Counted from the first letter of the stretch, positions 9,596-64,000 are shown. The stretch: 64,000 nt of DNA from Vampirovibrionaceae bacterium NZW_1234 (GCA_041697335.1 JBGUGD010000023.1:32001-96000), one strand, 5' to 3'. The notes: generated from the sequence alone by a model not told the origin. Made by a program: numbers and translations.

Positions 9596-10363
9596 GTGTT
9601 GAAGTCATTTTTCAAGGTAAACCGAAAGCTTTGCCAAGTTTTGAATAAAAGTTTGAACTTACCTCATCTATTGGGACAGGGGAATGTTTTATACCTGCAA
9701 CACTGTGCCGAGTTCATCAATACAAATCGAGATAAGAAGGTTCTTGATATTGGGGCAGGTCGAAAGTTGTATTTCGCCGATCTCCTGATTAAACCGTGTT
9801 CCAATACGATTATTGGATGTGATATCAGTCTTGACGAAGTTCAGTTGAATGGTGATTTGGATGAGGTTGTCATCTGCGATGCTAGTAAAGAGATACCGTT
9901 GCCGGATCAGTCGGTTGATTTGGTAACATCTTACATGTGTATGGAGCATTTGCCTGATACAAAAACCTTTTTGAATGAGGCAGTTCGAGTATTAAAACCT
10001 GGATCTCCTATGATCTTTTACTTTGCGGGAGGTTTAGCTCCTCATGCACTTATTAATCGTTTATTTCCACCGCATATATCAAAGAGAATCATATACTTTT
10101 TTCTGCCGGGAAGTGAGAATAGGCTTGGCTTTCCGGCATATTATGATGGTGTAACGCTATCTCGATTTTCACAACTGCTGAGAGAGCGAGGTGTCCACAT
10201 TGATAACATTTATGTGAATTACAATTTCCGAGAATATTTGAGCTTTTTTCTCCCTCTCTATCTTGTCGGCTTGGTGATTGACTATGTTCGCTATGTATTA
10301 CAATGCAAAGAATACGCTTGCAGTTATATTTTTGTGACAAGACTCATGTCTGATTCCCACTAA
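9596..10363 (+). CDS. Class I SAM-dependent methyltransferase (type 11)
   Basis: VLDIGAG motif I, IPLPDQSVDLV, MEHL, RVLKPG; visibly AT-richer than its neighbours. Confidence 0.85.
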   Translation: MLKSFFKVNRKLCQVLNKSLNLPHLLGQGNVLYLQHCAEFINTNRDKKVLDIGAGRKLYFADLLIKPCSNTIIGCDISLDEVQLNGDLDEVVICDASKEIPLPDQSVDLVTSYMCMEHLPDTKTFLNEAVRVLKPGSPMIFYFAGGLAPHALINRLFPPHISKRIIYFFLPGSENRLGFPAYYDGVTLSRFSQLLRERGVHIDNIYVNYNFREYLSFFLPLYLVGLVIDYVRYVLQCKEYACSYIFVTRLMSDSH

Positions 10364-11826
10364 AGGGGTACTGGTACTTTTTCCTTGACTCCGTGTCCAC
10401 GGTCTACCAGGCTTTGCAGTTGGGATTGGAGAGCGGCGTTGGTCTTGGTGACCCAGGGTTCGCGAATGGCACGATCCTTGGCGGCATGGAGCGCGTGTTC
10501 GTCCATCATGATGGGGTCGCCGATGTGAATGATCATTTTGCGCGGGACGGATTGAATGAGCTTGGATTTGCCGGTGACGATGGTTTCCAGCTGATGGAGT
10601 GTTTCGGCAATACTTTCCCAACTGGGATGTCGGCGATGGTAGTCGGGAGAGAGGCGCTGGAGATCATAGGCAAGGCGGAGCTTGGGAATGTAATTGCGGA
10701 CATATTTCTCTTTGGTCTCTGGCGCCATCGGTGGCTTGCTGTCGTTATAGCGGGTATACATGAGTTGCCGGATGGTTTGGATGCGTTCAAAGTAAGGCAT
10801 GGATTTGGTTTTGGTCAATTTGAGTTCGTGCTCAATCGGATCCATCAAGGCTTCCAGCACTTGGGCATGAAGGTCGACAACGTTGTCCGCCGACGGGGCT
10901 TGTCCCAGGGCTTGGTGGGCTTTGGTCTGTAAAACGGCGGCGTAAATGGCGTCTAAACGATCGTGGGTATTGAGGAAATAGCGTGGGGGGGTGAAAAGTC
11001 TGAGCTCTTTTTCCAGGCGTTTCATCGCACGTTCCAGGGTCGATTGTGGGTTGTGCAGGTACTGATACGTCATGCCCACGGGAAGGATGGCGATTTTTTT
11101 GCCCTTGGGGGCCACCATTTTGGCAGCCATCATGGCAATGGAAACGGTCCCGGGGTGTCCCTCCAATACTTTGCGGCTTTGGTAGGTCAGCCGACCTTCC
11201 GGAAAGATCACCAAGGGATAGGTTCCATCGACAACCTGGCGTATGGCGGTTGTTCCGGCAGGGCTTGCGGCGTTGTCATGGTGGATGGGGAAGAGTCCCA
11301 TTTTACTGAAGGTGTTGAGTCGGAACCTCTTGAACCATTCAAACGCAGACTGGGCCTGTTTCTTTAGGGTGTTCTTCAGGCCGGCGGGAAGCCAGCCGCC
11401 CAAGCGCGAGAGCCATTGCGGCACCTTGGGTGTTTCCAGTGAAAAGACCGACTGTGTGACCATGACACTGACCGGTGTCTTGGTCCGTCGGGCCAGTTCC
11501 GGCACAAAATAGACATCGCCCGAACCCGGGTGATTCGGGGCAATGATGAGGTGGACTTTTTCTTTGAGAAGACGCTTGAGCGTGTCGATCCCATGGATGT
11601 CCCAGTAAGGAATGTTGTATTGTCCCCGAATCAGAAATTCCCGATTGAGCAGAGACCCAATATTCAGCACTGTGCGAGAGGGGTTTGGCTTAAGGGCCAG
11701 GGAGGGTTCGGTGAACTGATCCGCAGCCAGGTTCCCGGCCTGAAAACGCGGTGTGGCTGAAACCCCAGGGCCGCATGCAACGCCCTTTAAGGGTACACCT
11801 GGTGTCATTGTCGCCTTTGTAATCAT
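10360..11826 (-). CDS. PlsC-family glycerolipid acyltransferase, long form, with N-terminal extension
   Basis: NHPGSGD (HX4D), LVIFPEG and ILPVGMTY motifs. Confidence 0.85.
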   Translation of the reverse strand: MITKATMTPGVPLKGVACGPGVSATPRFQAGNLAADQFTEPSLALKPNPSRTVLNIGSLLNREFLIRGQYNIPYWDIHGIDTLKRLLKEKVHLIIAPNHPGSGDVYFVPELARRTKTPVSVMVTQSVFSLETPKVPQWLSRLGGWLPAGLKNTLKKQAQSAFEWFKRFRLNTFSKMGLFPIHHDNAASPAGTTAIRQVVDGTYPLVIFPEGRLTYQSRKVLEGHPGTVSIAMMAAKMVAPKGKKIAILPVGMTYQYLHNPQSTLERAMKRLEKELRLFTPPRYFLNTHDRLDAIYAAVLQTKAHQALGQAPSADNVVDLHAQVLEALMDPIEHELKLTKTKSMPYFERIQTIRQLMYTRYNDSKPPMAPETKEKYVRNYIPKLRLAYDLQRLSPDYHRRHPSWESIAETLHQLETIVTGKSKLIQSVPRKMIIHIGDPIMMDEHALHAAKDRAIREPWVTKTNAALQSQLQSLVDRGHGVKEKVPVPL

Positions 11827-12137
11827 GGGTCTATCCCCCGCTTTTCCCGAAGCTAACCTCTATGAGCCGCGTGCGCTGTACAATGTTAAACGGTGTCGTG
11901 AATACGAAGAGAGTATAGGACAAACCCCACGGGTTTGTCTCTCAGAATCTTGGAGAAAGTTGCCCTGCCAGAATTTCGTCCTGTAGCGTTCTTGCCTTGG
12001 ATGTCGTTCGCTTCTTGGGCATGTTCCTGGTAAGATTTCACAACGTGCTTATCGTCAATAACGTTACCGGGATTCGACGGGGCGCGATGACATAGGTTAC
12101 AATGCCACTGACACATCAGAAAGAAACGTGCCCCGTT

Positions 12138-15241: not shown

Positions 15242-16780
15242 ATGTATACCAGTGGAATACCGTTTGGAGGAATGTCAGCGCTGACGGCATCGGCCGTTCC
15301 TGCTGCGTATCCCCAGGCGGGCGGATATGGACAAAGTTTTGGAATGCCACAAGGGCAATCCTTCGGGATGATGCCTCAGTCATACTTGCCTCAGTTTGCC
15401 GGTAGCCTTGCTGGACTCGGTGCCGGTGCTGCCATGGGTGTTCCCACGGCGGGATTGTTGCCGGGCCTGATGGCCGGCCAGGGTATGATGCCTGGAATGG
15501 GTGGCATGATGCCCGGAATGGGAATGCAGCAGCAGCAAGATCCTATGCAGAGTTTACTGACCAGCGTGATGCTGTTATTGATTAACGAGATGGGTGGCTT
15601 CAAGTCCCTGGGCGGGTTGTTCAACCAGCTCTTCCCCAAGAAGCCTGAACCGCCGCCACCACCTCCGCCGCCGCAACCGTCCTTCTTGAGCAATCCGATC
15701 TTGTTCATTCTGCCCTTAATCATTAAGCTGTTAGAGAAGGGCGATAAGGAGTCCTCCGGATCCGGTTCGGCCCAGACGTCCACCTCGTCGTCCAGCAGCA
15801 CGACATCGGGCTCGTCAACAGCGTCCGGTTCGACAACCAGTGGTAGCACCACGACGGGTTCGACGACCACAGGCTCGACCACGACCGGCAGCACGACGAC
15901 CGGATCAACGACCACGGGCTCAACCACGACTGGAAGTACCACAACGGGTTCAACGACCACGGGCTCGACCACGACTGGAAGCACCACAACAGGTTCAACG
16001 ACCACGGGTTCAACCACGACTGGAAGTACCACAACCGGTTCAACGACCACGGGTTCAACCACGACTGGAAGCACCACAACAGGTTCAACGACCACAGGTT
16101 CGACCACGACGGGTAGCACCACGACAGGTTCGACCACGACCGGCAGCACGACGACCGGATCAACGACCACGGGTTCCACCACGACTGGAAGTACCACAAC
16201 GGGTTCCACCACCACAAGCGGCGGTACCACGGTGTCGACCAGTACGACCACTGGGGCCAATGGCACCACCAATACGGCCAACGTTACCACCACGGGCGGC
16301 AACGTAACCGTCACCCAGAGCGCTGTTGATGGCCAAACGCCGGTTAATAACGTTCAAGTCGGTGGCGCCAGCGTGGACCAGATTGCCCAGAACGCTCGTG
16401 AGCAGATCGAGCGTGCCCGTCAGATGGCCGAAGATATTCAAAATGGACGCATTCCCAACAGCACCTCGACTGCCAGCAGCGGTGGCGGTGGTGGCGGGAC
16501 CACAGCGACCAGTTCCAGCACCAGCACCTCCGGGGCTTCCGGTGGCGGCGGCGGGAATACGGCCGCTCAGATTGCCCAGACCTTTAACCGGGATGTCCCC
16601 TCCAATTCCGGTGAACGGGCCAACAACATCGTCCAACAAGAGATGCAGCGGATTGGTATCCCTGGCAACGGCAGCGCTCCTACACGGACACCGAGTGCCG
16701 AGGAAATCCAGAACGCCATCAGCAGCTCGATTACCCGGATTCACAACGAGGTCTTCACCCGCAGACCCTCGACCCCCTAA
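15242..16780 (+). CDS. Low-complexity protein: Met/Gly/Gln-rich N-terminus, poly-Pro, 25x GSTTT repeat
   Basis: AGGAGAG SD before ATG 15242; repeat codons vary synonymously, supporting this frame. Confidence 0.8.
   Translation: MYTSGIPFGGMSALTASAVPAAYPQAGGYGQSFGMPQGQSFGMMPQSYLPQFAGSLAGLGAGAAMGVPTAGLLPGLMAGQGMMPGMGGMMPGMGMQQQQDPMQSLLTSVMLLLINEMGGFKSLGGLFNQLFPKKPEPPPPPPPPQPSFLSNPILFILPLIIKLLEKGDKESSGSGSAQTSTSSSSSTTSGSSTASGSTTSGSTTTGSTTTGSTTTGSTTTGSTTTGSTTTGSTTTGSTTTGSTTTGSTTTGSTTTGSTTTGSTTTGSTTTGSTTTGSTTTGSTTTGSTTTGSTTTGSTTTGSTTTGSTTTGSTTTGSTTTGSTTTSGGTTVSTSTTTGANGTTNTANVTTTGGNVTVTQSAVDGQTPVNNVQVGGASVDQIAQNAREQIERARQMAEDIQNGRIPNSTSTASSGGGGGGTTATSSSTSTSGASGGGGGNTAAQIAQTFNRDVPSNSGERANNIVQQEMQRIGIPGNGSAPTRTPSAEEIQNAISSSITRIHNEVFTRRPSTP
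15842..16216 (+). repeat. Coding tandem repeat, 25 x 15 nt (GSTTT)
   Basis: 375 nt of GGN-(TCN/AGY)-ACN-ACN-ACN units. Confidence 0.95.
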
Positions 16781-16987: not shown

Positions 16988-18328
16988 ATGATATCGATGT
17001 TGGGAATGCAACGTGTAAAGCCGATGGCGGTTGTTCAAGGGACCCCGTCGCGCTTTGGCAGCCAGAAAACGGATCCGTCCGTGTCGCCGGAGACACCGGT
17101 TTATCAGCGACCTGGTGGGTTGGAGGCACTTTTGTCCCACCGCAGCCAGGTGATTCCCGAGTCCCGGATTCGCGGGATTACCCGGGAAGCGGCCAAGTTC
17201 CAAGACGTCATTAACCTGGGCCAGGGCACCCCGGACGGTGATATGCCGCCGGAGGTCAAGTTGGCTGCGCTGCAAGCCCTGGCCGAGACCAAAAATGACA
17301 AGTATGCCCATTCCTGGGGCCTCAAGGAATTTCGGGACGCCATTGCCGAGCGTTATACCAAGACCCTGGGTTTTGCCCGTCCCATTGATCCGGAGACCGA
17401 AGTCGTGGTGACCCATGGGACGGCGTCGGCGATGGAAAACACCTTGAAGGCCCTGGTGGATCCCGGGGATGAGGTGATTCTCTTCTCGCCCGCCTACGAG
17501 AACTATGCCCCCAACGTGGTGATGGCTGGCGGAACGCCCAAGTTCGTGCAACTGAAACCCCCGAACTGGTCCTTTGACCCCGAGGAGTTGAAGGCGGCGT
17601 TTTCGCCCAAAACCAAGGCCATTGTGGTCAACACGCCCGGGAATCCGTCGGGCAAGGTCTTCAGCCGGGCGGAGCTGTCGATGATTGCCCGCGAGTGCAA
17701 GGCCCGCAATGTGGCTGCTATTTCCGATGAGATTTATGAACATATGGTTTTTGACAAGGCCAAGCACGTGTCCATCGCCTCTCTGCCTGGCATGCGGGAG
17801 CGGACCATTGTGATGCAGGGCTTGTCCAAAAGCTACAACGCCACCGGCTGGCGGGTAGGCTTTGTGATTGCCCCGCCGGTGCTGATGAACAAGATTCGCT
17901 TGATGTTTGATTACTCCAACATGTCGGTGGCAGCTCCCTTTCAGAAGGCCGGGGCCGTTGCCATGCGTTTGCCCGAGTCCCATTACCGGGGCGTGGCCCG
18001 ACTGTATCAGGAAAAGCGGGATATCCTGCTGAAGGCCCTGGACAAGGTCGGCTTTAAGACCTTTAAGCCCCAGGGCGCCTATTTCGTGCTGGCCGACAGC
18101 AAGGACATCTGCCAGAAGCTGGGGCTGCCCGATGGGGTGGCCTTGAAGGACTTTATGCTCAAGCATATCGGGGTGGCTGCGGTGCCGATGGCTTCGCTGT
18201 TTTCGGATCCCGAGACCGGCCGCTACATGATGCGCTTCAGCTTTTGCAAGGACAAGGCCACCTTGAAAGCGGCCGGGGAACGGCTGAAAAAGCTCATTCC
18301 CATGCTTGCCGGTCAGAAACCGGACTAA
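16988..18328 (+). CDS. PLP-dependent aminotransferase class I/II with N-terminal extension
   Basis: INLGQGTPD, NTPGNPSGKVF, SDEIYE, SKSYNATGWRVG (PLP Lys); GGGAGG SD before ATG 16988. Confidence 0.92.
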   Translation: MISMLGMQRVKPMAVVQGTPSRFGSQKTDPSVSPETPVYQRPGGLEALLSHRSQVIPESRIRGITREAAKFQDVINLGQGTPDGDMPPEVKLAALQALAETKNDKYAHSWGLKEFRDAIAERYTKTLGFARPIDPETEVVVTHGTASAMENTLKALVDPGDEVILFSPAYENYAPNVVMAGGTPKFVQLKPPNWSFDPEELKAAFSPKTKAIVVNTPGNPSGKVFSRAELSMIARECKARNVAAISDEIYEHMVFDKAKHVSIASLPGMRERTIVMQGLSKSYNATGWRVGFVIAPPVLMNKIRLMFDYSNMSVAAPFQKAGAVAMRLPESHYRGVARLYQEKRDILLKALDKVGFKTFKPQGAYFVLADSKDICQKLGLPDGVALKDFMLKHIGVAAVPMASLFSDPETGRYMMRFSFCKDKATLKAAGERLKKLIPMLAGQKPD

Positions 18329-18561: not shown

Positions 18562-19017
18562 ATGGCCCGGTTTGTTTATCGCTTGCAGAAGGTGTTCGAG
18601 CTTCGCGAACGCAAGAAAAAGGAGCAGGAACGCCGTGTGCAAGAAGCCAAGGCCCGGGTGCAACAGATCGAACAGGAGATCCAGGTGAAGAAGCAGGAAA
18701 TCCTGATGCTTCGCCAGAACATGATGGCCGCCCCCCATACCCTGTTGGAAATGCACGACATCTTCATCTACAACCTCAACGAAGAAATCGAGCAACTCTA
18801 CCGGGATCTGGAAATGGCCAAGCAGCAGCTGGAGTACGAAAAACAACTGCTGATCAAGGCCCAGGCCGACCTGGAGGCCCTGGTCAAGCACAAGGAAAAA
18901 GCCTACGAGGAGTTCCTCGAGGAAGAAAAACAAGCGGAGTTGAAACAGCTGGATGAAGTGGCGGGACAACGCTACTTTCGTCAGCAGCAGGAGCGGTTGC
19001 TTGAAGAACAGGAATAG
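18562..19017 (+). CDS. fliJ: Flagellar export protein FliJ
   Basis: MARFVYRLQKVFELRER N-terminus, all coiled coil, C-terminal EQ/ELKQLDE motif; 151 aa; AGGAG SD. Confidence 0.85.
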   Translation: MARFVYRLQKVFELRERKKKEQERRVQEAKARVQQIEQEIQVKKQEILMLRQNMMAAPHTLLEMHDIFIYNLNEEIEQLYRDLEMAKQQLEYEKQLLIKAQADLEALVKHKEKAYEEFLEEEKQAELKQLDEVAGQRYFRQQQERLLEEQE

Positions 19018-19050
19018 TCGTCCCTGAACAGGAGGCACCAGCCCAGTCCC

Positions 19051-19863
19051 ATGATGCAGCCCGAATCCACCCAAGCCGTCCAATCCATTCTGCTGTCCGC
19101 CGATGACAGCCAGGTCCAGGAAGCTGTGCAGAATCAGCGCCGGGTTCTTCAGCAAAACCCCATGCGCGAGGTCAGCGATGCCCTGTCGTTTCTGTCGATT
19201 CTGGACACCATGATGATGCCGGTTAATACGATGAAGGCGCAACTGGAGGCCGATGCCATGGGCTTGCTGGCCACCGATGAGAAAGCCTCCGGAAAAACCT
19301 CGGAAAAAGCACCGACGAAACAGGCTCCGAAAGAATCGGCGCCCAATGAAGGCGCAACGAATCCCATGGCCGTTGAGCGGACCGAGAAACAAAAGGTTCA
19401 GGACGAGCTGGACATGCTGACCATGGATCTGAGCCAGTTGACTCTGGGGGATCTGCGGATCCTGCAACAGGTCAACCACGGCATTACCCCGCCCACGCTC
19501 AACAACCTGAGCCCCTCTCTGGTACAGCAGTTTCCCAGTCTCCATTACAAGAGCCTCGCGGTTTCCAAGGGGCTGGAGGAAATGCTGGAGTCTGCCTATA
19601 AGGCCCAAAAGCCCTTGCGGGTGGATCTGTCGGATCGGGCGTCGGTGATTATCCGCATGAGCCGCAATGGGAAAGTTTCGGCGGAGTTTCTGCCCACGGA
19701 TCAGGCGGCCGATTTGTTTTACCGTCAGCAGTTGTCGGAGTTGAAAAGCCGTTTGGAAGCCAAAAACCTTCCCCTGGGCGAATTGTCCGTACGTCAGTGG
19801 AAACAGCAACAGTCGGATTCGCACCAGCAACACCAGCAGCGCGAGCAATCGTCCTCTGAATAA
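19051..19863 (+). CDS. FliK-like (hook-length control C-terminal domain) protein
   Basis: C-terminal beta-rich segment GKVSAEF...LSELKSRLEAKNL..GELSV followed by a Gln-rich tail; lies between fliJ and a hook/rod gene. Confidence 0.6.
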   Translation: MMQPESTQAVQSILLSADDSQVQEAVQNQRRVLQQNPMREVSDALSFLSILDTMMMPVNTMKAQLEADAMGLLATDEKASGKTSEKAPTKQAPKESAPNEGATNPMAVERTEKQKVQDELDMLTMDLSQLTLGDLRILQQVNHGITPPTLNNLSPSLVQQFPSLHYKSLAVSKGLEEMLESAYKAQKPLRVDLSDRASVIIRMSRNGKVSAEFLPTDQAADLFYRQQLSELKSRLEAKNLPLGELSVRQWKQQQSDSHQQHQQREQSSSE

Positions 19864-19983
19864 GAAGCTCTTAGCCCGGTTTCGTCGTAAATCCCCTCTC
19901 TTTATCCTACACGTTACAACACCACGGAATGTCCCCCTCTCTTTGAGTCCCCGAAGAAGAAAGTAAGCTGGAGATACCCCAAT

Positions 19984-20826
19984 ATGAAAGATCCGTTTAT
20001 TACAGCCATCAATGCCCAGAAAGCGGCGTTGAGCTGGTTTGAGGATTTGGCCATCAACGCCTCCAACATTTACACCCCCGGTTACCGGGAGCGTCGGATG
20101 ATGTTTTCCGATTTCCTGAACGGCTTTGCCTATAACGAACTGCCCTATAAGTCGGATCAGGGTAAGGCCATGCCCGGACGTTCGCCATCGAACCTCTTCA
20201 TCGAAGGCAAAGGCATGTTCGTCGTCCGCAAGAACGATGGCACCATGGTGTACACCCGCCTGGGCGATTTCCGCTTCGACGCCGATGGCACCCTGGTCAA
20301 CGAATTGGGCTACAAGCTCCAGGGCTACCTGACCGATGAGAAGGGGAATATTATTAATACCGGCGCCACGCAGAAAAATGCCAAAGGGTCGCCCAACAAC
20401 CCCAACCACAATTCCGGCGGGCCGGGCCATATGCCCACCACGGAGATCAACCTGTGGATTGATCCCTCCAATGGGAAGTTCTTTGGGAAATATGATGAAT
20501 ACAAGGTGAAGGCCGATGGTACTGTTGTCGGCGTCTCTGACAAGGGCAAGAAAACGGTGCCGCTTTATAAAGTGGCGCTGGTGGCCTTTACCAATCCCGA
20601 GGGCCTGTCCCAGGTAGAGCCCAATTACTTTGCCCCGACCATTGCTTCCGGGGAGCCGGTGGAAGGCGCCGGGGAAATTCAAAGCGGCTTGATCGAAAAG
20701 TCCAACGTGGGCTTGCGGGAAACCGTCAACTACCTGTCGGAAGCCAAGTTGCAGCTGGATGTGACGTCGAAGCTCATCAGCACCAACAAGCAGTTGCTCC
20801 AGGAATCGCTGCGTCTGGTGCAATAA
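19984..20826 (+). CDS. Flagellar hook-basal body (rod/hook) protein, FlgG/FlgE-like
   Basis: N-terminal INASNIYTPGY, YTRLGDFRFDADGTLV, FTNPEGL, SGLIEKSNV. Confidence 0.88.
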   Translation: MKDPFITAINAQKAALSWFEDLAINASNIYTPGYRERRMMFSDFLNGFAYNELPYKSDQGKAMPGRSPSNLFIEGKGMFVVRKNDGTMVYTRLGDFRFDADGTLVNELGYKLQGYLTDEKGNIINTGATQKNAKGSPNNPNHNSGGPGHMPTTEINLWIDPSNGKFFGKYDEYKVKADGTVVGVSDKGKKTVPLYKVALVAFTNPEGLSQVEPNYFAPTIASGEPVEGAGEIQSGLIEKSNVGLRETVNYLSEAKLQLDVTSKLISTNKQLLQESLRLVQ

Positions 20827-31609: not shown

Positions 31610-31765
31610 GACGGCGTTTCCAATTTTTTTCGGACATGGGTAGCAACTTTTTCTGTTGAGGTGCGTTTCATACACATCACTCAACATCCACTCATGTTTT
31701 TGAACGATTGAGTTGAGAGTCTCACACCAACAACCATCACATACTAGGAAAGAGGATAACTGATA

Positions 31766-32371
31766 ATGCCTACGCCAGTGAACGTTAAATTTGTCCCCCG
31801 CTTTGGTTCCGTCGATGCTGTTTCTTCGGTGTCGATTAACGGTAAAGATGATAAAGAGATCGTGGAACTGTTAAAAGGGGAATCACCCTCCCACTTGACA
31901 CATACCGGTGGTCTGAGCTTCCGTGAAGCCCACTCTCTGAGCCAGCTGGAAGATGCCTATACCCCTATCATTGGTGACCCTCAAGGTATTTATCATATGT
32001 TTGCGGGTTTAAACAAGAGCCCTCGTGACGCGGCTCAGGATTCCTTCAATGCCATCTCGCGTCGCTATATTATTTTAGACAGCAAAGATCGCTCTTACCG
32101 GGGTCTGGGCTATGTCAACCTGAGAGTTCACCCCATTGTGGCTCAGGTGGCTCAGCTCTATCACGGTGATTTGGGGCGTGCCGGATACCGCTACGAAGAT
32201 AAGCCGGAAGCCAAAAAAGCATTCCCGGTTCTGTTCCAGGTGATGGATATGCCGGACAAGGCTCGCGCTGGAAAACTGTTAAAAGAAGCCTTTGGCTATT
32301 ATCAAGGCATTGACGGTTTTTCCAAAATCGTGGATAAATTCGTTTCCGACGTGCTGCCAAACCGGAAATAG
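31766..32371 (+). CDS. Hypothetical protein with PRFGS leader
   Basis: GAGGA SD; 201 aa; followed by a terminator hairpin. Confidence 0.7.
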   Translation: MPTPVNVKFVPRFGSVDAVSSVSINGKDDKEIVELLKGESPSHLTHTGGLSFREAHSLSQLEDAYTPIIGDPQGIYHMFAGLNKSPRDAAQDSFNAISRRYIILDSKDRSYRGLGYVNLRVHPIVAQVAQLYHGDLGRAGYRYEDKPEAKKAFPVLFQVMDMPDKARAGKLLKEAFGYYQGIDGFSKIVDKFVSDVLPNRK

Positions 32372-32527: not shown

Positions 32528-33751
32528 TTGATGATGACCCAGATTCTTTCGCACTTTCCTTTGAAGACGGTTGCATCTCGTCGTCCCAGTATTGCCGTAA
32601 TGCAATCTCAAAGCCGGTTTCCTTTAGGTGCCCGACCCATTTCCTCAGGACAGGATGTTGAAGCTCCGAGAAGACTCCGATTCGGATCAGCCATTCAAAT
32701 CGACAAGATGCCTGTTTCGTCTGATGTGATGGCGGGGTTGCCCTCGCTGAAGGAGCTAAAAAAGCCGGTGGCTGTGGTTGTTGTCGGGGGGAATGCGACC
32801 CAGCTGGTGATTGTTCACCCGAATAGTCAGTCGCTGGTGGCACAGACGTTGATACCTTTGGGCAGTAAAGGCAAAGGCACTGGTATCAATCCCCAGGGGC
32901 TCGCCGGAACGGTGGTTCAGGGCCAGCTTCATGAGGCTTTCAAGGATTTTCAACGGGAACTGGAGGCTGCCGGTATTTTACCCGAACACCCTGAGCGTAT
33001 TCTGGCTGTGGCCACAGGCGGGGTCCGACAACTGGGGGATTCCGACCGGACTTGGGTTTTGGACACGGCGCAGAAACAGTATGGGATTCCTTTGAAGACA
33101 ATTGATGGCCACGACGAAGCCGATTTTGTTTATCGAAGTGTATTGACTGGGCAGCCCGTGGGAGCTTCTGAGCCGGTAAGGCTCATTGAAATCGGGGGCG
33201 CTTCTACGGAAATTGCCTCGGGGCGAGGAGTTTATAGCGACTCTCATCAGACAGTCACATTGCTGGTGGGTGGCGGCTCGCTGGGATTGTCTGAGCCTTT
33301 TGACCTGGGGCAATTGCAGACTGCACGCAATACGGTGTCCAAGGCAATTCACGCGTCCCAGATTCGCCCGGACGCAACGTTGCCTCGATTGTTTATGAAT
33401 CCCTCGGCGGTTTATCATACTTTGGCCACAGTCCATTTAGCCCAACATCCTGGAGAAGACCTGCTGAAAGAAGGTTTGTCGCTTCGGTTAATTCAACACT
33501 ATCTTTCTCCGGAAGGGTTACAAACCTTGAAAACGACTCATGATAGCGTCACCACTTCGGATAAAGCGCGTAAAGCTCTTAAAGACGTTCCTGCTAAACT
33601 GCTGATTCTCGAGCAGGTGCTGTTGAGTCTTGGGGCTAGCCCCGAAACGCTGGTCAGGTTCGGCTCCCCGGGAGGCATGAAAATGGGCGTGATGGCAGAA
33701 CTGATTGAAGCGGTCTCGGCTAAGGACACTGCCGCCAAGGACGCCTCGTAA
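32528..33751 (+). CDS. Divergent Ppx/GppA-like (ASKHA) phosphatase with N-terminal extension
   Basis: AVATGGVRQ, IDGHDEA and LIEIGGASTEI match Ppx/GppA motifs; AGGAG SD. Confidence 0.7.
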   Translation: MMMTQILSHFPLKTVASRRPSIAVMQSQSRFPLGARPISSGQDVEAPRRLRFGSAIQIDKMPVSSDVMAGLPSLKELKKPVAVVVVGGNATQLVIVHPNSQSLVAQTLIPLGSKGKGTGINPQGLAGTVVQGQLHEAFKDFQRELEAAGILPEHPERILAVATGGVRQLGDSDRTWVLDTAQKQYGIPLKTIDGHDEADFVYRSVLTGQPVGASEPVRLIEIGGASTEIASGRGVYSDSHQTVTLLVGGGSLGLSEPFDLGQLQTARNTVSKAIHASQIRPDATLPRLFMNPSAVYHTLATVHLAQHPGEDLLKEGLSLRLIQHYLSPEGLQTLKTTHDSVTTSDKARKALKDVPAKLLILEQVLLSLGASPETLVRFGSPGGMKMGVMAELIEAVSAKDTAAKDAS

Positions 33752-38361: not shown

Positions 38362-38578
38362 ATGTGTAAAACCAGTCTCAACAACTGATTGTATTCAGTA
38401 TTGTAACAAGAATTGCCAAGAAGTAAAGGGAAGGTTGGAGGATTGCGAAAATCAACACATGTGCTAAAGGCTTTTTGCGTTCGGGCGTTACAATTATTTA
38501 TATTTTATATATCTTTGGCAATTTTAGGATATCCGATGTTTTTATTATCTTACGAAGAGACATTAGAGGGTTTTAATT

Positions 38579-46406: not shown

Positions 46407-46641
46407 AATCTTACTCCTCCCCTTTCATGGATGACCTGGGTTTCTCCAAACCATGATATTTCTGCTACCACCTTAACGGATGGGGCACTCCTTTTCATTC
46501 CCCAGCTCACGGATGTCTCCTGAGCGTTCAGCCGGATTGCTGATGCCCGCTTCGGCAATCTGTCATGCCCAAGCGCAACTTTTCGGCTTGACCTCCCTTT
46601 ATTGGAGGGTTCCCCTGATGCTGGTTGATGAAAGGAAATTG

Positions 46642-48153
46642 ATGAGAGTTTGTGAGATTCGGACGGCCCTAAAGGCTGTTCCCTCCGATAAAAGGGCCTC
46701 ATATACCCCTGTATTGCCTTTGTCCTCCAGGCCGGTCTCTTCGCCAGTCACGAATGACCTTCGTTTTTCCGGCGCTTCTGCTCGGATTCGTTTGTTGTTG
46801 GCCTTTTCGGCACTTTGGGGCGGTTTGACGGCACTGCCATATCCGGCGGTTACCCTGAAACAGGTGGACCCGAAGGTCCGTCAGGAGCGGATGGCGCAGG
46901 ACGATTTGGCCTTATTTAAAGAACTCTATCAGCTTAAAGCCGAATACAAGACCATCTATAAGGCTTACTCGGCCAATCTGGACAAACGCCAGCAGGCGGA
47001 AAAGGTGCTGCGCAATTATCTGAAATTGCAGCCGGAAACCTTGAAAGCCCTGCACGTTCAGGCCGAAAAGGCTCAGGTCCTCTTTAGCCCGGACTTGCCT
47101 GCCGAGGCATTGATGAGTGAGACGGTTTTCCAGGCTTTACCCGAGGCTGCCCGACAAGATCAGCGTCTGGTGCGGTGGCGAAAGCTCTATGCCAGCCTTG
47201 AGGAAGAAGCCCGAGAATTGTACCCAACCGTGGATAGCCGGTTTAAAGCCTATGCACGCTTTATTGGAGTCAACCAATCCGCCCTGGTTCATGCCATCAA
47301 CCGAAACCGTGTTGAGCCGCCTGTGGCCAACCCGAAGAACCCATTGCCTGATAATGTCAGAACCATGGCCGCCACTCTGCAACAGGATTCCGTCATTCAA
47401 GACGGCTTTACCGGGAGCAATATGGCAATGCGTCAGTTTATCCGAGCCCTCAGCCTTACAGAGTCCATGAACTCAGCCTATAATGCCCTCGATGAAATGC
47501 CCTTGCGCTTGCAGACCTATAGTCCCGAGATCCAAAAGCCAATTTCGACCTTGCGATCGGATCCGGCGTGGAAGCTGCATTGGCAAAAGCGGCACAATGC
47601 GGATCCGTCCGTCACCCGCATTGCCATTTTAATTCCCACGGAAGGCAATGATGCGTTGGAGGAAATGAATTTTGCCGACCAGATGACGCAGCTTAAAACG
47701 GCCTTGACGGATCCCAAAACAGGGTACCGCGTTGATTCGGTGATTCTGCCGCCCCCTGCCCAAAAAGAAGACGGGATTGTCCTTTTTCCGTCCTTTGAAG
47801 GCCGGGTGAACCGGGCCTTTGCCCAGGCTTGCCAGGAGCGGGATAGAATTCTGGCCGAGCGACCCGGGCAGAAGGTCGAGTTTTTTGTGGCCTGGATGGG
47901 CCACGGCGGGGTGGACACCAAGGGCCGCCCGACCCCGCAGGACCCGGATTCCTTGGATTTTTACCGCCAGGGCACCGGTGATTTTGTCCTAGGGCTAAAT
48001 CGCTGGGAGAGCCTCCCCCCCAAAAAACGGCATGCCTTGCTGGCCAGCCTCGGGGGACCGACCTTCGAGCTCCTGATTGCCTGCCACGCCGGAGCCGGCA
48101 TTTGTAAACAAGTTGAGTCACCGTGTAAGCCTGATGCGAGTCGTCTCACTTGA
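46642..48153 (+). CDS. Hypothetical protein with LRFSG leader, helical middle and C-terminal caspase-like (clan CD) His-Cys motifs
   Basis: FFVAWMGHGG and LLIACHAG; AAAGGA SD before ATG 46642. Confidence 0.65.
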   Translation: MRVCEIRTALKAVPSDKRASYTPVLPLSSRPVSSPVTNDLRFSGASARIRLLLAFSALWGGLTALPYPAVTLKQVDPKVRQERMAQDDLALFKELYQLKAEYKTIYKAYSANLDKRQQAEKVLRNYLKLQPETLKALHVQAEKAQVLFSPDLPAEALMSETVFQALPEAARQDQRLVRWRKLYASLEEEARELYPTVDSRFKAYARFIGVNQSALVHAINRNRVEPPVANPKNPLPDNVRTMAATLQQDSVIQDGFTGSNMAMRQFIRALSLTESMNSAYNALDEMPLRLQTYSPEIQKPISTLRSDPAWKLHWQKRHNADPSVTRIAILIPTEGNDALEEMNFADQMTQLKTALTDPKTGYRVDSVILPPPAQKEDGIVLFPSFEGRVNRAFAQACQERDRILAERPGQKVEFFVAWMGHGGVDTKGRPTPQDPDSLDFYRQGTGDFVLGLNRWESLPPKKRHALLASLGGPTFELLIACHAGAGICKQVESPCKPDASRLT

Positions 48154-50634: not shown

Positions 50635-52284
50635 TCATGCAGGGTTGTCAGCCAAGGTGACGGATTGTGTTCGGCTCAAGAGGGAGGTATAGCCTTCCAG
50701 TCGACCGGTCGGGCGAATCTTGTTGCGAAATTCGTTATTTTCACCAATGCAGCGAATAAAGATACTGTACTCAGCACAATTCACGGCAATGCTGTTGCCG
50801 TTGCGATTCAGGCGGAGCTCTCCCTCATCAGTGGCATTATAGAGCGCCGCGAGGTCAAAAAAGAGGAACGGGAGATTGGGAGTGTCTTTATGAAGCGTGA
50901 CCACAAAGGTGGCGGGTTTCCCGCTATGCTCCACAAGGGCATCTTTGAGAACTTTACGCACCGTTTCCGGGGTGGTTTGACTGGGGCTCAAATCCAGTTG
51001 AATGATGGGTTCCCGGTTTTGTGATTTGGCATAGTGCTGAATTGACCAATCGAACTCGGACTGACTGTTATTTTGAGGGTCAAAGACCGTGAAGAGGTGC
51101 TGCCGACTGAGCAGACTCTGCCCCACATAGCGGTTTAGCTTGTGGATTTTACCAATGTTGAGTTTGGACGTATTGGGATCAATAGCCAGTTTTTCGTCGA
51201 TAGTATTAATATGATGATCCGCTTGAGAAACAATACCATAATTACCGCTATTCCAATCATAGCCAAGATAGCGGGTAAACCAGCGTTTGGCTTCCGCTAA
51301 TTCTTTTTGTTCGGATTCCTGATGGGGCGCGATTTGTTTTTCCCAAGCCTGCAGCCCATTGAGCATTAAGTCCTTTAGGGGGGGTAAGGGCTTTTCATCA
51401 ATCAGGCCGCATGTTTTAAAGACTTCTTTTCGCAGAAAGGTGAAGAAGTCTTTCGGGGTAATTCGTTGTGACACAAAATTAATATTAGAATGAACAATTA
51501 TATCTGCCTTGATATCATTGCGAGCTTCATAGTCGTTTATATTCTGGTAGGTTTCGAGCAGGGCTTTGGGAATAAGCAACGAGTTCGGGCTGATAATTTC
51601 ATTATAGAATGCTCTTTTTTCGCCGGAGTGAATCGCATGAAAATAAGTTGCTGCATTGGTCTGTTGAGTAAAATTAATCCGATATTTATTTAAATTTAAT
51701 TTGTTTTGAGCATCTAAGCTTCTCCAATTTTTGCAATTATTGTCCCAGAGGTTGGAGAAGACTTCGATTAACGCAGCCTTATCTTGGACATGCTCAGCAT
51801 GCTTATGGAGTAAATGCTGCCACAGGGTGGTTTTCTTACTGTCTTTCAACGAAGAATCTTCACGCCGTTGCAACAGATTCAGAATGGCCTCATCTCGTTG
51901 TGCTTTCGGGAGTTCTGCCAGCCGTCGATCAATACCGGACTTTGTCTCAAAATCGGTGGGAAGCCAGCCACGTTTCAAGTTCGTGACCCAGCTGGGAACA
52001 TCTGCGGTAACTGTCTTGCCCGAGCTTTTAGAAGACGCGGCATTGCCTCTGAAATAGGCAATAACGCGGCGAACATAATCCATAACAATGTCTGCGATGT
52101 TGACAAAAAAACGGGTCACACTCTTCAAAAGTCTCCTGAACGGGCCTGGTGAGCTTGCCGTGTCGGCAGTTTTGGTTTCCGAAGCAAACCGAAGGTGATG
52201 AGTTTGTTTTGTGCTGGGTAATATCAGCGACGTCGGGACAAAACGGGAATGTGTGTGAACCGGATTGCACGATTGAAGGGACAT
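50635..52284 (-). CDS. Hypothetical protein with LRFAS leader and amphipathic helix
   Basis: 549-aa ORF, AT-rich centre, no recognised catalytic motif. Confidence 0.75.
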   Translation of the reverse strand: MSLQSCNPVHTHSRFVPTSLILPSTKQTHHLRFASETKTADTASSPGPFRRLLKSVTRFFVNIADIVMDYVRRVIAYFRGNAASSKSSGKTVTADVPSWVTNLKRGWLPTDFETKSGIDRRLAELPKAQRDEAILNLLQRREDSSLKDSKKTTLWQHLLHKHAEHVQDKAALIEVFSNLWDNNCKNWRSLDAQNKLNLNKYRINFTQQTNAATYFHAIHSGEKRAFYNEIISPNSLLIPKALLETYQNINDYEARNDIKADIIVHSNINFVSQRITPKDFFTFLRKEVFKTCGLIDEKPLPPLKDLMLNGLQAWEKQIAPHQESEQKELAEAKRWFTRYLGYDWNSGNYGIVSQADHHINTIDEKLAIDPNTSKLNIGKIHKLNRYVGQSLLSRQHLFTVFDPQNNSQSEFDWSIQHYAKSQNREPIIQLDLSPSQTTPETVRKVLKDALVEHSGKPATFVVTLHKDTPNLPFLFFDLAALYNATDEGELRLNRNGNSIAVNCAEYSIFIRCIGENNEFRNKIRPTGRLEGYTSLLSRTQSVTLADNPA

Positions 52285-52540
52285 CGGTATTCTTGCCTTA
52301 TGCTTGGATTAAATTGGACCGGCGATAAAACGCAGTACTGTAATAAACCATTTCAATACCATCTTTTGATATGGCGTAACAGACTATGTCACGAATTCAA
52401 CACAAAGTGCTGGTATCTCCGAAATCCGTGCTTTGCTATGTTTGACTCGGCGTTAAGAGCGTATCCAGTGCGAGACAAACGAGTATCGGAGATACCCAAA
52501 ACAATGAAAAGTCCGATGTCGCTAATGTTTAACGATCTGA

Positions 52541-52615: not shown

Positions 52616-52789
52616 TTACGACGTCCGAACCTGGACTTCGTTCCAGCAGTGTTCCAAGCGGCTCAGGTTCATGTCCAGCTGTTGAATGGTATTCCACAGG
52701 TCGGCCCAGTGGATGTTCGATAACAGCCCTAAAATGTCCGGAAGAGACTGCCGTTTGACTTCACCAAAACTCAGGTGATGACTTCTCAT
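52616..52789 (-). CDS. 57-aa hypothetical protein (below the ORF-track cut-off)
   Basis: MRSHHLSFGEVKRQSLPDILGLLSNIHWADLWNTIQQLDMNLSRLEHCWNEVQVRTS, read by hand; ends just before repeat copy 2. Confidence 0.45.
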   Translation of the reverse strand: MRSHHLSFGEVKRQSLPDILGLLSNIHWADLWNTIQQLDMNLSRLEHCWNEVQVRTS

Positions 52790-58890: not shown

Positions 58891-58893
58891 GCT

Positions 58894-60751: not shown

Positions 60752-62134
60752 TTACTCGAAACGCTCAGGTGGAAAGTCGGGCCAGGGATCTTGGTGATAA
60801 GTGCTGCGTTTCTGTTCGGGTATCTTCAAGCGCTCTTCCGCTGCTTGAACGGCCATTTGAAAGCCTTTCGTTGTCCAAAGTGCATGTATAATATTCCAGG
60901 ATATTTGGGGTTTGTTTTTAAGAAGCGGAATAGGCTTTGTCGCTTCTGCCCATTGCATGCGATATGCTTCGCACTCAGAGTAAAGCCGTGCAGAAAGAAC
61001 AACTCGAAGGTCTTCTAAGGGTAGACTATCGATGTAAGAGTGTTGGTACTCTTGAAAACTTTTATAGGTTTTTAGCTCCTCGTACGGAGTATTTAAGAAT
61101 GCTTTTAGATGAAGCCACTCTGAATAAGAGCTTAAGGCAAATCTTTCAGATTCTTTTGGCAAGGGTGGGAGATTATGAGACTCTCGATAGTCATTATAAA
61201 GTTTAGAACCTAAAGAATAGTTCTTTTTGTAATGTTCTCTTTTTATTGTGTTTTCAAATTTACTTTCAAGCTCTATATCAGTCATCGGAGATTGGGAAAT
61301 GATACGGAGCTTGTGATTAATCTCATGGACGAGAACACCGTAGGTTGCTGCAAATTCTCCTGGCGTTTGTAGTTTGTTAGGCAGGTATATGTGTATTTCA
61401 CCTAAATAATAGACGGGTCTCATTAGGTCATCTGAAGAATAGATCTTTTCCTTTTTGTCATAAACTGGATCCGACCAATCTACTTCATTGGTAAAGAAAC
61501 AATCGCCAAGCCGCTTTGATTCAAACCGAGTTTTATGCCAACCCTCTAGTGTAAACAAATAGAACCTTTTTGTAGGATTTTGGATGCGAAATCCCACAAA
61601 GCCTTGGGGGTGGATGTGTTTTTGGAAGGCCCGGTTAAAGATTTGTTCAGCTTCTGCTTGGGGAATTTCTTTGGGATTTTTTTTAATGAGGGCAAGCAAT
61701 TCCGGGAAAATTTCATCGGCGATGGCTTTGGTTTTTATGCGTCGTTTTTCGGGGGTCTCCAATCCCTTCGGTATTTTGAAGTCGCTGAGTTTGAGTAAGG
61801 GAAGGATACGGGGTTTGAAGTAAGGCGGTTGCTTTGCCCAGACTAATACCCGGTTGATGAGTTGTTTGAAAGCCCATATCGCATCAATAAATTTCTCTTT
61901 GATTTGTCCAAAAAAGCTCCAAACCGGTTGAAAAACACTTTTGCTCTGAAAAACCTTCTTCTCGGATGCAAATCGGGTAGAGGCGATGTGCTCCACGCGA
62001 CTGTTCTCAAAGCCATTGGCTTCGTTTAATGTGAGTCCAGCCTCAAAAACAGCTGAACGTGTTGAGGCTTGGCCTTGCAATAACCAAGAACAACCGTTTT
62101 TATGGTGCCAAAGACGATAAGGTTCAATCCGCAT
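60752..62134 (-). CDS. Hypothetical protein with TRFAS leader and HExxH zinc-protease motif
   Basis: VLVHEINH; downstream SECEAY; AT-rich. Confidence 0.7.
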   Translation of the reverse strand: MRIEPYRLWHHKNGCSWLLQGQASTRSAVFEAGLTLNEANGFENSRVEHIASTRFASEKKVFQSKSVFQPVWSFFGQIKEKFIDAIWAFKQLINRVLVWAKQPPYFKPRILPLLKLSDFKIPKGLETPEKRRIKTKAIADEIFPELLALIKKNPKEIPQAEAEQIFNRAFQKHIHPQGFVGFRIQNPTKRFYLFTLEGWHKTRFESKRLGDCFFTNEVDWSDPVYDKKEKIYSSDDLMRPVYYLGEIHIYLPNKLQTPGEFAATYGVLVHEINHKLRIISQSPMTDIELESKFENTIKREHYKKNYSLGSKLYNDYRESHNLPPLPKESERFALSSYSEWLHLKAFLNTPYEELKTYKSFQEYQHSYIDSLPLEDLRVVLSARLYSECEAYRMQWAEATKPIPLLKNKPQISWNIIHALWTTKGFQMAVQAAEERLKIPEQKRSTYHQDPWPDFPPERFE

Positions 62135-62289
62135 ATTTAAAACGACAAGATGGTGTTGAAATACGGATTAGTACCATAGCAAAAATATGGTTTTGCAACA
62201 TATTGTCTTCACTCCTCCAAAATCAAAACCCCTGAAGGGAATTTTGTGCCAATTTATGGCAGGGGAGGACGCAATAATTAATACCTGTG

Positions 62290-64000
62290 TTATTTGGAGG
62301 GCTCGGTCGTGGTGGGGGAGTCTGGGGTCAGGGTAATGGCGTAGCCCAGGCGCTCCTGAATGTTTTTACCGGCTGGCGAATTCATCACCTTGATGTCTTT
62401 CCAGGGACGATCGGAGTTGAGGACCACAATCGTGTTCTGAAGATCCAGCTTGGGCCAACCATTTGAGCTGAGCAGCGTGCCCAATGCCTTCAGGGGACCG
62501 TTTGCTCGGCTGGGAGGTGTCAGAGCATCCAATGCATGGACGTTGTCCACCAGAATCATGTTGCCCGCCAGCGAATAGATGTCGTCCTCCTGCTTGATCG
62601 CGGCCTTTAAGAGCTTGGCTTCAATGGCTTCATGGCTTTTCAGTTCGTGCAGGTCGAGAGTAATGAGTTTATTGGGTCCCTGAAGTGTTTCCGACAGTTT
62701 TTGGGCCAACTTTCTTCCCTCGCCTGCCGAGCCGACAATACCGAGCTGGGTGGTCACAATCTGGGGGCCAAGTGACTGGCCGGGTAAATAACTTTTCCAG
62801 GTTTCAATGGCATTGGCCAGTGTCTCAGCAATGGTGTATTGGCCTCCTGAGTCTGGATGGGTTTGGTCGCCATGGCCCTTGAAATCCTGGGCTACGCTGG
62901 CTGCAACCGTTTGGGGGTTGATTTCCCGATATTTGCCCAATTGCTTTCGTGTCTTCAGCATTTCTTTGGCCTGGTGAACCTGAAACGTGTCTTTGGAGAG
63001 GAGCCGTTTTTCCAGGGCCAGGTTAAGCGCCCAGCTTTCGCCAAAGGTTTCGGGTTGATCCGAATGGAGCTTCGCCCCCACCAGACCGGCCAAGACGAGT
63101 TGATCGTTCGGGCTGTTGATCGCTGTGGCCAACAGGTTTACATAGCGAGGAGGACGCAACGCCGGGAAGCGGATGAACCCAAGTACCCCTGCTGCTTTGA
63201 TGACGGGGCTTTCATGTTTTATGGACTCCCGCAGAGCTCTTTTGAGCGATTCTTCGATGCCCGGCGTCATTTTGGCCAGGGGATCTGCGGCGAGATTCTG
63301 AAGCGCAAAGAGGACCATGGCTTTTTGTGCATCCGGGATGGGTTTTTCAAGGGTCTTCATCAAGGCCTGGGTTTGTTTGGCGTAGTCGATGGTAATGCGT
63401 TTCTTGGGCGTGGTCAGTGTACGGGCATACAGTCGGGGAAAGTCCGGGATTTGGCAGAGTCTTTCCAGGAGGCTCTCTGCTTGCTCGCGATTTGCTGCGT
63501 TTTTTCCTTTCAGCGCCTTGTGCAACACAGGAATATAGGCTTCCAGTGCTTTCAGATCAACGGAGCTGTGCGGGGCAAGATCTTCAGGAGAAATTTTGCT
63601 GACTTTCAGAAGGTTTTCCAGGTTCGGCTCCGTAAAGGGCACAAGATCCGCCGTTTGACGGTTCAGGGTATGGAGTCTGCTCTGAATCTGTAATTCCCGG
63701 CGCAGGCGTTCGCGTTCATCTTCCGGCACCGCGTCCGCGTCTTTAGAAGGTTTGGCGTCCGGTGTACTTTTCCAAGGATTTGCAGGGCGCGTGCCTGTAA
63801 ATAAACCAATGAGCCATTTGAAAGGGTACAACAGGGTATTCACCAGAACAGCAAGGGTTTTTTTGAAATCAGCAGACCAGGTTCTCTGTTTCTCGGCTTG
63901 CTTTTTCTCTCCAGATTCTGAACAAAATCGAACGGAAATCCTGGAGAAGCTGGATGCAGGCAGGCTTTTTGCTGGCGAAGCAGCCACGGGGCGTTGAGAA
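62290..64000 (-). CDS. Hypothetical protein, probably 5'-truncated by the window, with VRFCS leader, helical repeats and a degenerate Clp-type AAA+ domain
   Basis: Frame open to the window edge; GIVGSAGEGRK, LITLDLHEL, ILVDNV, LDLQNTIVVLNSD. Confidence 0.7.
   Translation of the reverse strand, partial: SQRPVAASPAKSLPASSFSRISVRFCSESGEKKQAEKQRTWSADFKKTLAVLVNTLLYPFKWLIGLFTGTRPANPWKSTPDAKPSKDADAVPEDERERLRRELQIQSRLHTLNRQTADLVPFTEPNLENLLKVSKISPEDLAPHSSVDLKALEAYIPVLHKALKGKNAANREQAESLLERLCQIPDFPRLYARTLTTPKKRITIDYAKQTQALMKTLEKPIPDAQKAMVLFALQNLAADPLAKMTPGIEESLKRALRESIKHESPVIKAAGVLGFIRFPALRPPRYVNLLATAINSPNDQLVLAGLVGAKLHSDQPETFGESWALNLALEKRLLSKDTFQVHQAKEMLKTRKQLGKYREINPQTVAASVAQDFKGHGDQTHPDSGGQYTIAETLANAIETWKSYLPGQSLGPQIVTTQLGIVGSAGEGRKLAQKLSETLQGPNKLITLDLHELKSHEAIEAKLLKAAIKQEDDIYSLAGNMILVDNVHALDALTPPSRANGPLKALGTLLSSNGWPKLDLQNTIVVLNSDRPWKDIKVMNSPAGKNIQERLGYAITLTPDSPTTTEPSK

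Follow-up and report, generated by a model that had tools for sequence, protein, structure and literature searches.

The subject of this analysis is a short N-terminal leader, ending in a motif built around an Arg-Phe pair, which is shared by unrelated proteins encoded in a 64,000-nt stretch of the Vampirovibrionaceae bacterium NZW_1234 genome (C30:32001-96000, hereafter the window), together with a second flagellum-derived gene set of the same genome, here called set 2, part of which also lies in the window. The genome spans 3.70 Mb in 41 contigs and is 94.75% complete. A preliminary description of the window, made from its sequence alone, had placed the motif in eight open reading frames (ORFs) and had read it as a dedicated export signal marking an effector repertoire. 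All eight motifs were found where it had placed them, and the leader is confirmed as a real and large feature of this uncultured Vampirovibrionia genome, a relative of the cyanobacteria.

The first leader gene, on the minus strand at 10360..11826, encodes a PlsC-type acyltransferase (PF01553 at residues 81-252) with PRFQAG at 11734-11751 (R27); it scores 4.8 on the leader matrix described below, for which the cut-off is 4, and the promoter-like element that precedes other leader genes was not found before it (1.4). A leader-bearing paralogue lies elsewhere in the genome, and the best outside relatives are only 25% identical. At 16988..18328 (plus strand) stands an extra copy of a class I/II aminotransferase (PF00155) with SRFGS at 17048-17062 (R22; score 6.5), directly upstream of the set-2 fliJ gene and 48% identical to a leaderless paralogue. 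Alignment, the check proposed in the preliminary description, identifies its leader as an extension: in 119 homologues the N-terminus falls at a position equivalent to residue 44 (median), 2/119 extend as far as R22, and the best match has an N-terminal extension of its own with PNFS and ISFGG.

An orphan at 31766..32371 (plus; no Pfam match) carries PRFGS at 31796-31810 (R12; score 3.9, posterior 0.78), with a Shine-Dalgarno (SD)-like sequence ahead of its ATG and, at 31639..31672 on the same strand, the promoter-like element, a GCAA-N9-TTGAG-N4/5-TTT box scoring 12.9. It is followed at 32528..33751 (plus) by a Ppx/GppA-family protein (PF02541) with LRFGS at 32675-32689 (R51; score 3.1), whose sole paralogue found is leader-bearing too; these two of the eight fall just below the matrix cut-off. 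The orphan at 46642..48153 (plus; no Pfam match) has LRFSG at 46759-46773 (R41; score 5.6) and a hydrophobic stretch after the motif, and the element at 46571..46604 (plus; 13.6) favours this start over 46480. Three further orphans lie on the minus strand. The gene at 50635..52284 (no Pfam match) has LRFASE at 52177-52194 (R32; score 4.9) and the element at 52340..52373 (minus; 10.2). The gene at 60752..62134 has TRFASE at 61961-61978 (R54; score 4.0) and the element at 62220..62253 (minus; 13.1); it was missed by our gene caller and is therefore outside the genome-wide counts. The gene at 62290..63987 has VRFCSE at 63916-63933 (R20); its element (12.3) is at 64069-64101, just beyond the window, and an in-frame ATG just past the window (~64032) is closer to it. 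Five of the eight leader genes have the element upstream. A 57-aa ORF at 52616..52789 (minus), put forward earlier as a variant case, does contain HHLSFGE, but its membership is unconfirmed, with a leader score of 2.3, a weak promoter score of 5.3 and no paralogue below E 0.1 in the genome.

Immediately behind the aminotransferase, three plus-strand genes belong to set 2. The gene at 18562..19017 encodes FliJ (TIGR02473, above cut-off) and follows fliI2 in the corresponding operon of the relative G031. The next, at 19051..19863 (270 aa), is a FliK/SctP-like length-ruler candidate on the basis of atlas feature matches (0.95 to a cluster in which 28% of the members have Flg_hook, 0.92 to HpaP clusters) and of synteny in G031; it has no Pfam or NCBIfam match. 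The third, at 19984..20826 (280 aa; TIGR03506, above cut-off), is a short FlgE/FlgG-like rod or hook protein with 54% identity to the product of the gene that closes the contiguous set-2 operon of G031.

Genome-wide statistics were drawn from 2915 genes called with a purpose-made hexamer caller instead of a standard annotator. In an unbiased scan of tripeptides at residues 4-70 of the 2764 called genes of at least 100 aa, with the expectation taken from residues beyond 100, RFG was the most enriched (177 observed, 37.4 expected; log10 p about -60), followed by PRF, LRF and VRF, and PRFG occurred 38 times where 1.8 were expected. The density of RF[GASCQ] is 2.2-3.1 per 1000 residues at positions 0-39 and about 0.7 internally. 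A Phe-centred mixture model estimates that 489/2869 genes carry the leader, 343 of them at a matrix score of at least 4. At this threshold 219/1845 N-termini match, as against 7, 12 and 13 in internal and C-terminal windows of equal size, although the matrix was trained on those same N-termini and the untrained tripeptide scan is the unbiased test. The excess of N-terminal over internal occurrences, on which the preliminary description had made its proposal depend, is therefore established. The consensus is a stretch rich in S, P, A and T, then [VPLIT]-R(0.62)-F-[G 0.43, S 0.18, A 0.12, Q 0.08]-[GSA], with little information beyond +2. The 343 proteins belong to 303 unrelated families.

The motif is frame-specific, with 225 occurrences in frame, 71 and 40 in the other frames and 27-52 on the opposite strand, and its Arg, Phe and Gly codons use synonymous forms at genome-like rates; it therefore acts at the protein level, and a DNA-level element as the source of RFG is ruled out. 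Starts with an SD are found upstream of the motif in 247/343 genes and downstream in 71; among candidate starts an SD accompanies 323/1143 upstream and 87/1447 downstream. The leader is polar and rich in S, P, T and R, with a net charge of +2.3 and an acidic fraction of 2.7%, and its Phe has a median position of 19 (5-95% range 5-52). A Sec h-region, which the preliminary description had found missing, is nearly always absent: by a simple hydropathy window one occurs in the first 35 residues of 11/343 leader proteins and 435/2268 others. Proteins with at least four transmembrane segments are likewise nearly excluded (2 of 343 vs 171 of 2268). A hydrophobic stretch was seen within 70 residues in 44/343 leader proteins, some Tat-like or Sec-like after the leader (e.g., L120:15534-17045), and leader and downstream segment may form a bipartite address. 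A second, downstream D-x-F element is weak (68 vs 42 of 273). A 5' cassette of promoter and leader shuffled between unrelated genes was considered but is not supported, since only four similar pairs were found among the 343, three with homologous bodies and one consisting of adjacent genes.

Few leader genes lie inside operons (5.8% vs 23.9%), and the DNA upstream of them is enriched in GCAATTT and GCAA-N10-TGA. The fitted element, GCA(A/T)-N9-TTGAG-N4/5-TTT(T/A)T, occurs in forms with and without the TTGAG box and ends about 25-65 nt (median 42) before the start; its position, strand and two-box shape suggest a promoter. When it was refitted on half of the genes, with initialisation from the all-gene matrix, held-out scores of at least 8 were obtained for 48/157 leader genes, 92/1623 others and 3/157 reverse strands. 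Ten of the 15 exact matches in the genome stand before a leader gene and two before near-threshold ones. A canonical sigma-28 promoter was considered and rejected, TAAA-N14-16-GCCGATA being found ahead of 0/314 leader genes. Beyond the leader genes proper, 71 promoter-positive genes without an RF motif also encode polar, acid-poor starts, with an h-region in 3/71. The element also precedes the gene that immediately follows fliI2 (10.1), as well as some members of a hairpin family discussed below; two paralogous orphans directly downstream of fliI2 (L001:8784-9857) share this site and were not found in the G031 operon.

Within the window, this wider regulon is exemplified by the element starting at 38514 (12.2) and the Gly/Gln-rich orphan behind it, which has no RF leader (element and orphan together 38514..40582, plus). 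An additional leader candidate, a Gly/Met/Gln-rich orphan at 15245..16780 (plus; posterior 0.93; no NCBIfam match), starts with a P-F-G-G variant and has a promoter-like site of 7.1 at 15102. Orphans rich in Gly, Gln, Met and Ser and without family match occupy 15245-16780, 38657-40582, 40666-41895 and 60086-60571, three of the four having promoter-like sites (7.1, 12.2, 7.2); they are possible structural or translocon-like substrates.

As for what the leader is attached to, a Pfam scan covered 185/343 leader proteins from 40 regions, 38 of which had been picked for leader density. No Pfam family was assigned to 110/185 (59%), compared with 26/80 controls (80 of 110 drawn). The assigned cargo includes proteases (calpain-like, trypsin, M16, M20, FtsH-like), hydrolases, nucleotide and NAD enzymes, MalQ, TPR/HEAT proteins, thiolase, enoyl-CoA hydratase, CheR, PrkA, SpoVR, sigma-70 region-4 repeats and a release-factor domain. 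Leader copies of citrate synthase, IDH, MDH, GDH, Gmk, PurA, Prs, FtsH, ClpB and CinA coexist with a leaderless copy. The leader occurs on 1/99 class-conserved orthologues, taken as best matches of other families' genes. Clustering of leader genes is mild, with 67 adjacent pairs against 40 on average and at most 62 after shuffling. In a prkA-spoVR-orf-prkA-orf cluster (L116; C5:195785-205961), four of five genes score at least 4 and the fifth has VRFSG by eye, and a leaderless PrkA or SpoVR was not found in the genome; per-gene leaders are what would be expected if the subunits were exported singly. A 1077-aa leader protein (L142:7602-10835) has sigma-70 region-4 helix-turn-helix matches and no paralogue; its target could be a foreign RNA polymerase or foreign DNA. 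Among the Pfam matches shown for the 185 proteins there is no ankyrin, F-box, LRR, SET or eukaryote-type protein kinase family. The prokaryote-type cargo, together with the absence of ankyrin, F-box and LRR from these matches, suggests a bacterial or organellar target.

Two genes of the FlhA family are present in the genome and, with them, two flagellar gene sets. Set 1 is a complete flagellum, L and P rings included, whose FliJ-like gene, assigned by position and sequence, sits with fliK-flgD-flgE on C25. Set 2 is scattered over flgF-flgG-flgB-flgC-lytic transglycosylase-fliE-fliF-orf385-fliH-flhA2-fliI2 on C32, fliM/N-like-fliO-fliP-fliQ-fliR on C8, flhB2 with a divergent FliA/WhiG-like sigma gene on C29, and the fliJ, ruler-like and short flgE genes at 18562-20826 of the window; in G031 the genes of the C32 and window blocks are joined in a single operon. 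The product of orf385 is weakly FliG-like, and FlhB2 has the conserved NPxH-type segment. Set 2 is without a second filament, hook cap, junction or L/P ring, flgH, flgI, flgD, flgK and flgL being present in the genome in single copies only; three MotA/ExbB-family matches may belong to either set. FlhA2 shares 62-67% identity with Gastranaerophilales/Melainabacteria records and mostly 32-43% with sequences outside them, which assigns the genome to the Vampirovibrionia. In a tree made with a quick method (37 rows, from which two long branches had been removed and which has fewer outgroups than a 48-row version), all set-2 copies form one class-wide clade (11 rows, SH-aLRT 100) among flagellar FlhAs, separate from the SctV clade (8 rows, support 100), which includes an Archangium sequence.

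The sigma gene beside flhB2 is FliA/WhiG-like, below cut-off, and adjoins flhB2 in 23/24 loci. A second divergent FliA-like sigma (C16:18950-19630) is 44% identical to it and co-distributed in many relatives, and either of the two could be the promoter reader. A hairpin family of about 109 aa with at least five copies (including C10:10475-11499, C8:98167-98493, C7:123788-124114 and C10:180271-180537), which relatives also encode with 400-residue inserts, is a candidate for the axial protein of set 2. With regard to other machines, searches of the genome, which is 94.75% complete, gave no match to VirB4, VirD4, VipB or type VI sheath families. Two secretins are encoded, one in a pilus or type II secretion (T2SS)-like locus and one in a Tad-like locus, both unlinked to leader genes or set 2; use of a secretin by set 2 in trans is possible. 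Secretin-based systems take up their substrates from the periplasm after Sec or Tat export. Two small Flp/Tad-pilin-like genes, identified by eye in the window at 4488-4679 (plus) and 33790-34002 (minus), resemble the gene heading the Tad-like locus (C2:140729); the first has no NCBIfam match.

Set 2 can be placed among known type III systems as follows. The gate recognition motif of flagellar early substrates has the consensus F-x-x-x-hydrophobic. In the Salmonella FlgD early-substrate signal it is combined with an extreme N-terminal hydrophobic signal, and the introduction of the same article describes export signals of type III secretion systems (T3SS) as lacking a common peptide sequence (PMC8983047). 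Like flagellar early substrates, the leader is N-terminal, chaperone-free and Sec-independent, with a small hydrophobic motif in the first ~40 residues, and the FlhB/FlhA/FliPQR gate is present in the genome. Unlike them, it is a conserved [VPLIT]-R-F-[GSA] on hundreds of non-structural proteins, and docking at FlhB is here hypothetical. According to the available text of Abby and Rocha 2012 (PMC3459982), flgB, flgC and fliE distinguish flagella from non-flagellar T3SS (NF-T3SS). At least seven of eight core genes, the sctJNQRSTUV homologues, characterise the NF-T3SS, and set 2 has all eight export components in its second fliF, fliI, fliP, fliQ, fliR, flhB, flhA and FliM/N-like genes. It resembles injectisomes and the Myxococcales intermediate in this, as well as in its flagellar exaptation, its scattered loci and the orphan-rich cargo under a common promoter. 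It differs from injectisomes in that it has no linked secretin, retains flgB, flgC and fliE in its operon, and has an FlhA2 outside the SctV clade. Measured against a motility flagellum, set 2 has the export and rod genes but not its own L/P rings, cap, junction or flagellin. It is thus outside both the definition of the injectisome, as far as given in that text, and that of the motility flagellum.

The needleless T3SS* of Myxococcus xanthus, which is needed together with a Tad pilus for lysing bacterial prey (PMC12075869), is, as set 2 appears to be, a secretin-less, needle-less type III apparatus, and a Tad-like locus is present here too. In contrast, set 2 belongs to another export-gate lineage and retains rod and short hook-like genes; no common leader motif is described for T3SS* in the available part of that article, and predation by the present organism is hypothetical. 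Within the class, available text on MEL.A1 reports that it lacks filament, cap, junction and L/P rings and reads this as genome reduction (PMC3787301), and a preprint, in the portion available, states that ~75% of Gastranaerophilales genomes keep flhB, fliI and flgG and postulates secretion (bioRxiv 10.64898/2026.04.24.720558). The gene set of these "residual flagellar genes", treated there as a reduced flagellum, is the same as that of set 2, whereas here set 2 is a separate paralogous system beside a complete flagellum, with a sigma gene of its own, a candidate signal and a candidate regulon. The literature searched, most subscription journals being outside it, describes neither the motif nor the promoter nor a coexistence of two sets.

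Distribution was followed in 150 class genomes from sampled families labelled f1-f11. FlhA-family genes are present in all sampled families except f5 (0/33) and f10 (0/2), and the flhB2-linked sigma was found in f1-f4, f7, f9, f11 and 9/23 of f6, with 0/33 in f5 and 0/2 in f10. FlhA2 is present without flagellin or FlgH in f7 (FlhA2 35/35, flagellin 0/35, FlgH 0/35) and in f9 (10/11, 0/11 and 0/11). The strict promoter pattern reaches 4.4 per Mb in f1, 1.4 in f2, 1.3 in f3, 1.0 in f7, 0.2 in f5 and 0.35-0.6 in the others, against reversed-pattern controls of 0.04-0.5 per Mb and with base composition differing among families. In relatives with a close-type set 2, the promoter coincides with a relaxed leader pattern in 8/43 genes, as compared with 23/779 (p 9e-5, kin not being independent), and in f5/f10 in 0/11. 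Promoter-positive genes of relatives start with IRFG, VHFG, PSFG, TNFS or LSFS, Arg being replaced in other families by S, N, Q or H. A second FlhA-family match in G148 of f7 (C1:1501950-1502969, a 492-aa frame on a very long branch) and two partial matches in G041 of f8 comprise the cytoplasmic domain only and are possible stand-alone FlhA-C proteins. Sequencing runs matching the window DNA are labelled as hot-spring or microbial-mat metagenomes, the best match possibly being the source sample, and no RNA dataset is among those listed.

Taken together, these data lead us to regard the leader, with somewhat more confidence than doubt, as the type III substrate-recognition signal of set 2, which would be a non-motility machine derived from the flagellum independently of injectisomes. 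The proposal of a dedicated export signal on an effector repertoire is supported insofar as Sec and polytopic proteins are nearly excluded, conserved orthologues are almost free of the leader, a promoter is shared and a candidate machine exists; export itself, and set 2 as the machine that reads the leader, we infer.

Several observations weigh against this assignment. No direct connection between leader and set 2 was obtained, and no outer-membrane channel for set 2 was identified in the genome. A modelled complex between the C-domain of FlhB2 and residues 1-40 of the protein encoded at 31766 scored 0.01, which counts neither for nor against the assignment. The heads of the set-2 structural operons lack the element (scores at most 5.5). 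A leaderless paralogue exists for 43/75 leader genes and 29/54 controls, so it is not commoner among the former, and the general rule that leader copies are always extra is unsupported. For a type III system, 343-490 substrates would be an unusually large repertoire. The leader matrix also fits both copies of the flagellar FliD, as well as FliW, although these may be look-alikes. Across the class, the large repertoire is seen only in f1 (G003 6/109 genes, G004 1/93; others 0-2 per sample); f8 has a diverged set 2 with sigma matches in 0/8; and in f6, f8 and f9, all with a diverged set 2, promoter-leader pairing is 0/14 and promoter density low (0.4-0.6 per Mb). The relaxed leader rate is equal in set-2-positive and FlhA-less lineages (31/822 and 13/363, from DNA samples of 80-260 kb per set, which are underpowered), promoter-positive counts in the lineage samples equal those of reverse-strand controls (43 vs 44), and the relaxed pattern was picked after inspection of the data, on kin that are not independent.

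The strongest competing explanation, unlikely in our judgement, is that the leader is an intracellular tag (a degron, an adaptor-binding or a processing site) of a life-stage proteome, that the sigma regulon is developmental, and that set 2 is otherwise employed or forms a periplasmic or cell-to-cell channel. A common promoter with a WhiG/FliA-like sigma would fit a developmental regulon, as would PrkA, SpoVR, the sigma-70 region-4 repeats, the release-factor domain, CheR and the central enzymes, all prokaryote-type, and a set 2 without an identified outer-membrane pore. However, 59% of the cargo is outside any Pfam family and is lineage-specific, unlike a conserved developmental programme; the promoter-positive genes without the RF motif are also polar and acid-poor at their starts; and the motif floats between about residue 5 and residue 52.

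Export by the set 1 motility flagellum is improbable. Flagella of some bacteria do export non-flagellar proteins, set 1 is complete with L/P rings, and both FliD copies start with an I/L-x-F-G-G segment that fits the matrix. Yet the element is absent from the flagellin and fliD genes (at most 5.0), promoter-plus-leader genes occur in G148 of f7, a family in which flagellin and FlgH were found in 0/35 genomes, and f6, with flagellin in 23/23 genomes, shows little promoter signal.

Still less probable is mimicry of a mitochondrial or plastid transit peptide, by which the leader would route proteins to the organelles of a eukaryotic host, an alternative raised in the preliminary description from a supposed -2 Arg and one compatible with prior type III export. 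The site of the mitochondrial processing peptidase has R-x-F spacing. In the leaders Arg adjoins Phe at -1 in 277/343 and stands at -2 in 3/343, R-x-F-[GSA] is not enriched genome-wide (58 vs 66), Phe lies within the first 12 residues in 115/343, Arg is not kept in other families, and the eukaryote-type families listed above are missing from the Pfam matches shown; the mimicry is accordingly poorly supported, although cleavage after Phe is possible. What speaks for it is the S/P/T/R-rich, acid-poor, positively charged composition, a cargo with citrate synthase, IDH, MDH, GDH, thiolase, enoyl-CoA hydratase, M16 and FtsH-like proteins, and a relative that preys on Chlorella, as available text reports (PMC4451040). 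Least probable of all is another reader, be it Tad, a type IV pilus/type II system or an exporter of another kind, for even with two secretins encoded and a precedent in Myxococcus for pairing a Tad pilus with a needleless T3SS (PMC12075869, available text), the secretin loci are unlinked to leader genes and set 2, and leader proteins have no signals for the Sec or Tat step on which such systems rely.

If the leader is indeed the recognition signal of set 2, the following sequence of events is the most likely. The set-2-linked sigma, or its paralogue, would read the promoter and switch on a late-substrate regulon; the disordered leader with its invariant Phe would dock either at a general chaperone or at the gate of set 2; and the cargo would cross the inner membrane unfolded. 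More speculatively, the target may be a prokaryote-type compartment, whether an organelle or a bacterium serving as prey or host, and the hydrolases and additional copies of central enzymes could be delivered there for feeding. On a broader and more tentative reading, which we hold to be rather less likely than its negation, the Vampirovibrionia possess a flagellum-derived delivery machine independent of injectisomes, with a sigma-driven regulon of its own and a linear signal that can be read. In the family of the present genome about one gene in 7-8 would then have become cargo, among it entire operons and duplicates of enzymes of central metabolism, and the cell of the prey or host, or its organelles, would serve as an external compartment for digestion and metabolism.

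As a rule, export signals of type III systems are unreadable from sequence. If the assignment to set 2 holds, motif and promoter together would allow the substrate repertoire to be predicted across an uncultured class and would open gating to direct tests. Set 2 would represent a second independent exaptation of the flagellum, with the rod genes kept, and thus a living parallel to the origin of injectisomes, while the "leftover" flagellar genes of the Gastranaerophilales would be reinterpreted as a maintained secretion system. For Vampirovibrio chlorellavorus, whose predation has been proposed, in the available text of PMC4451040, to rely on a type IV system, it would offer an alternative model, because VirB4 and VirD4 were not found in the present genome.

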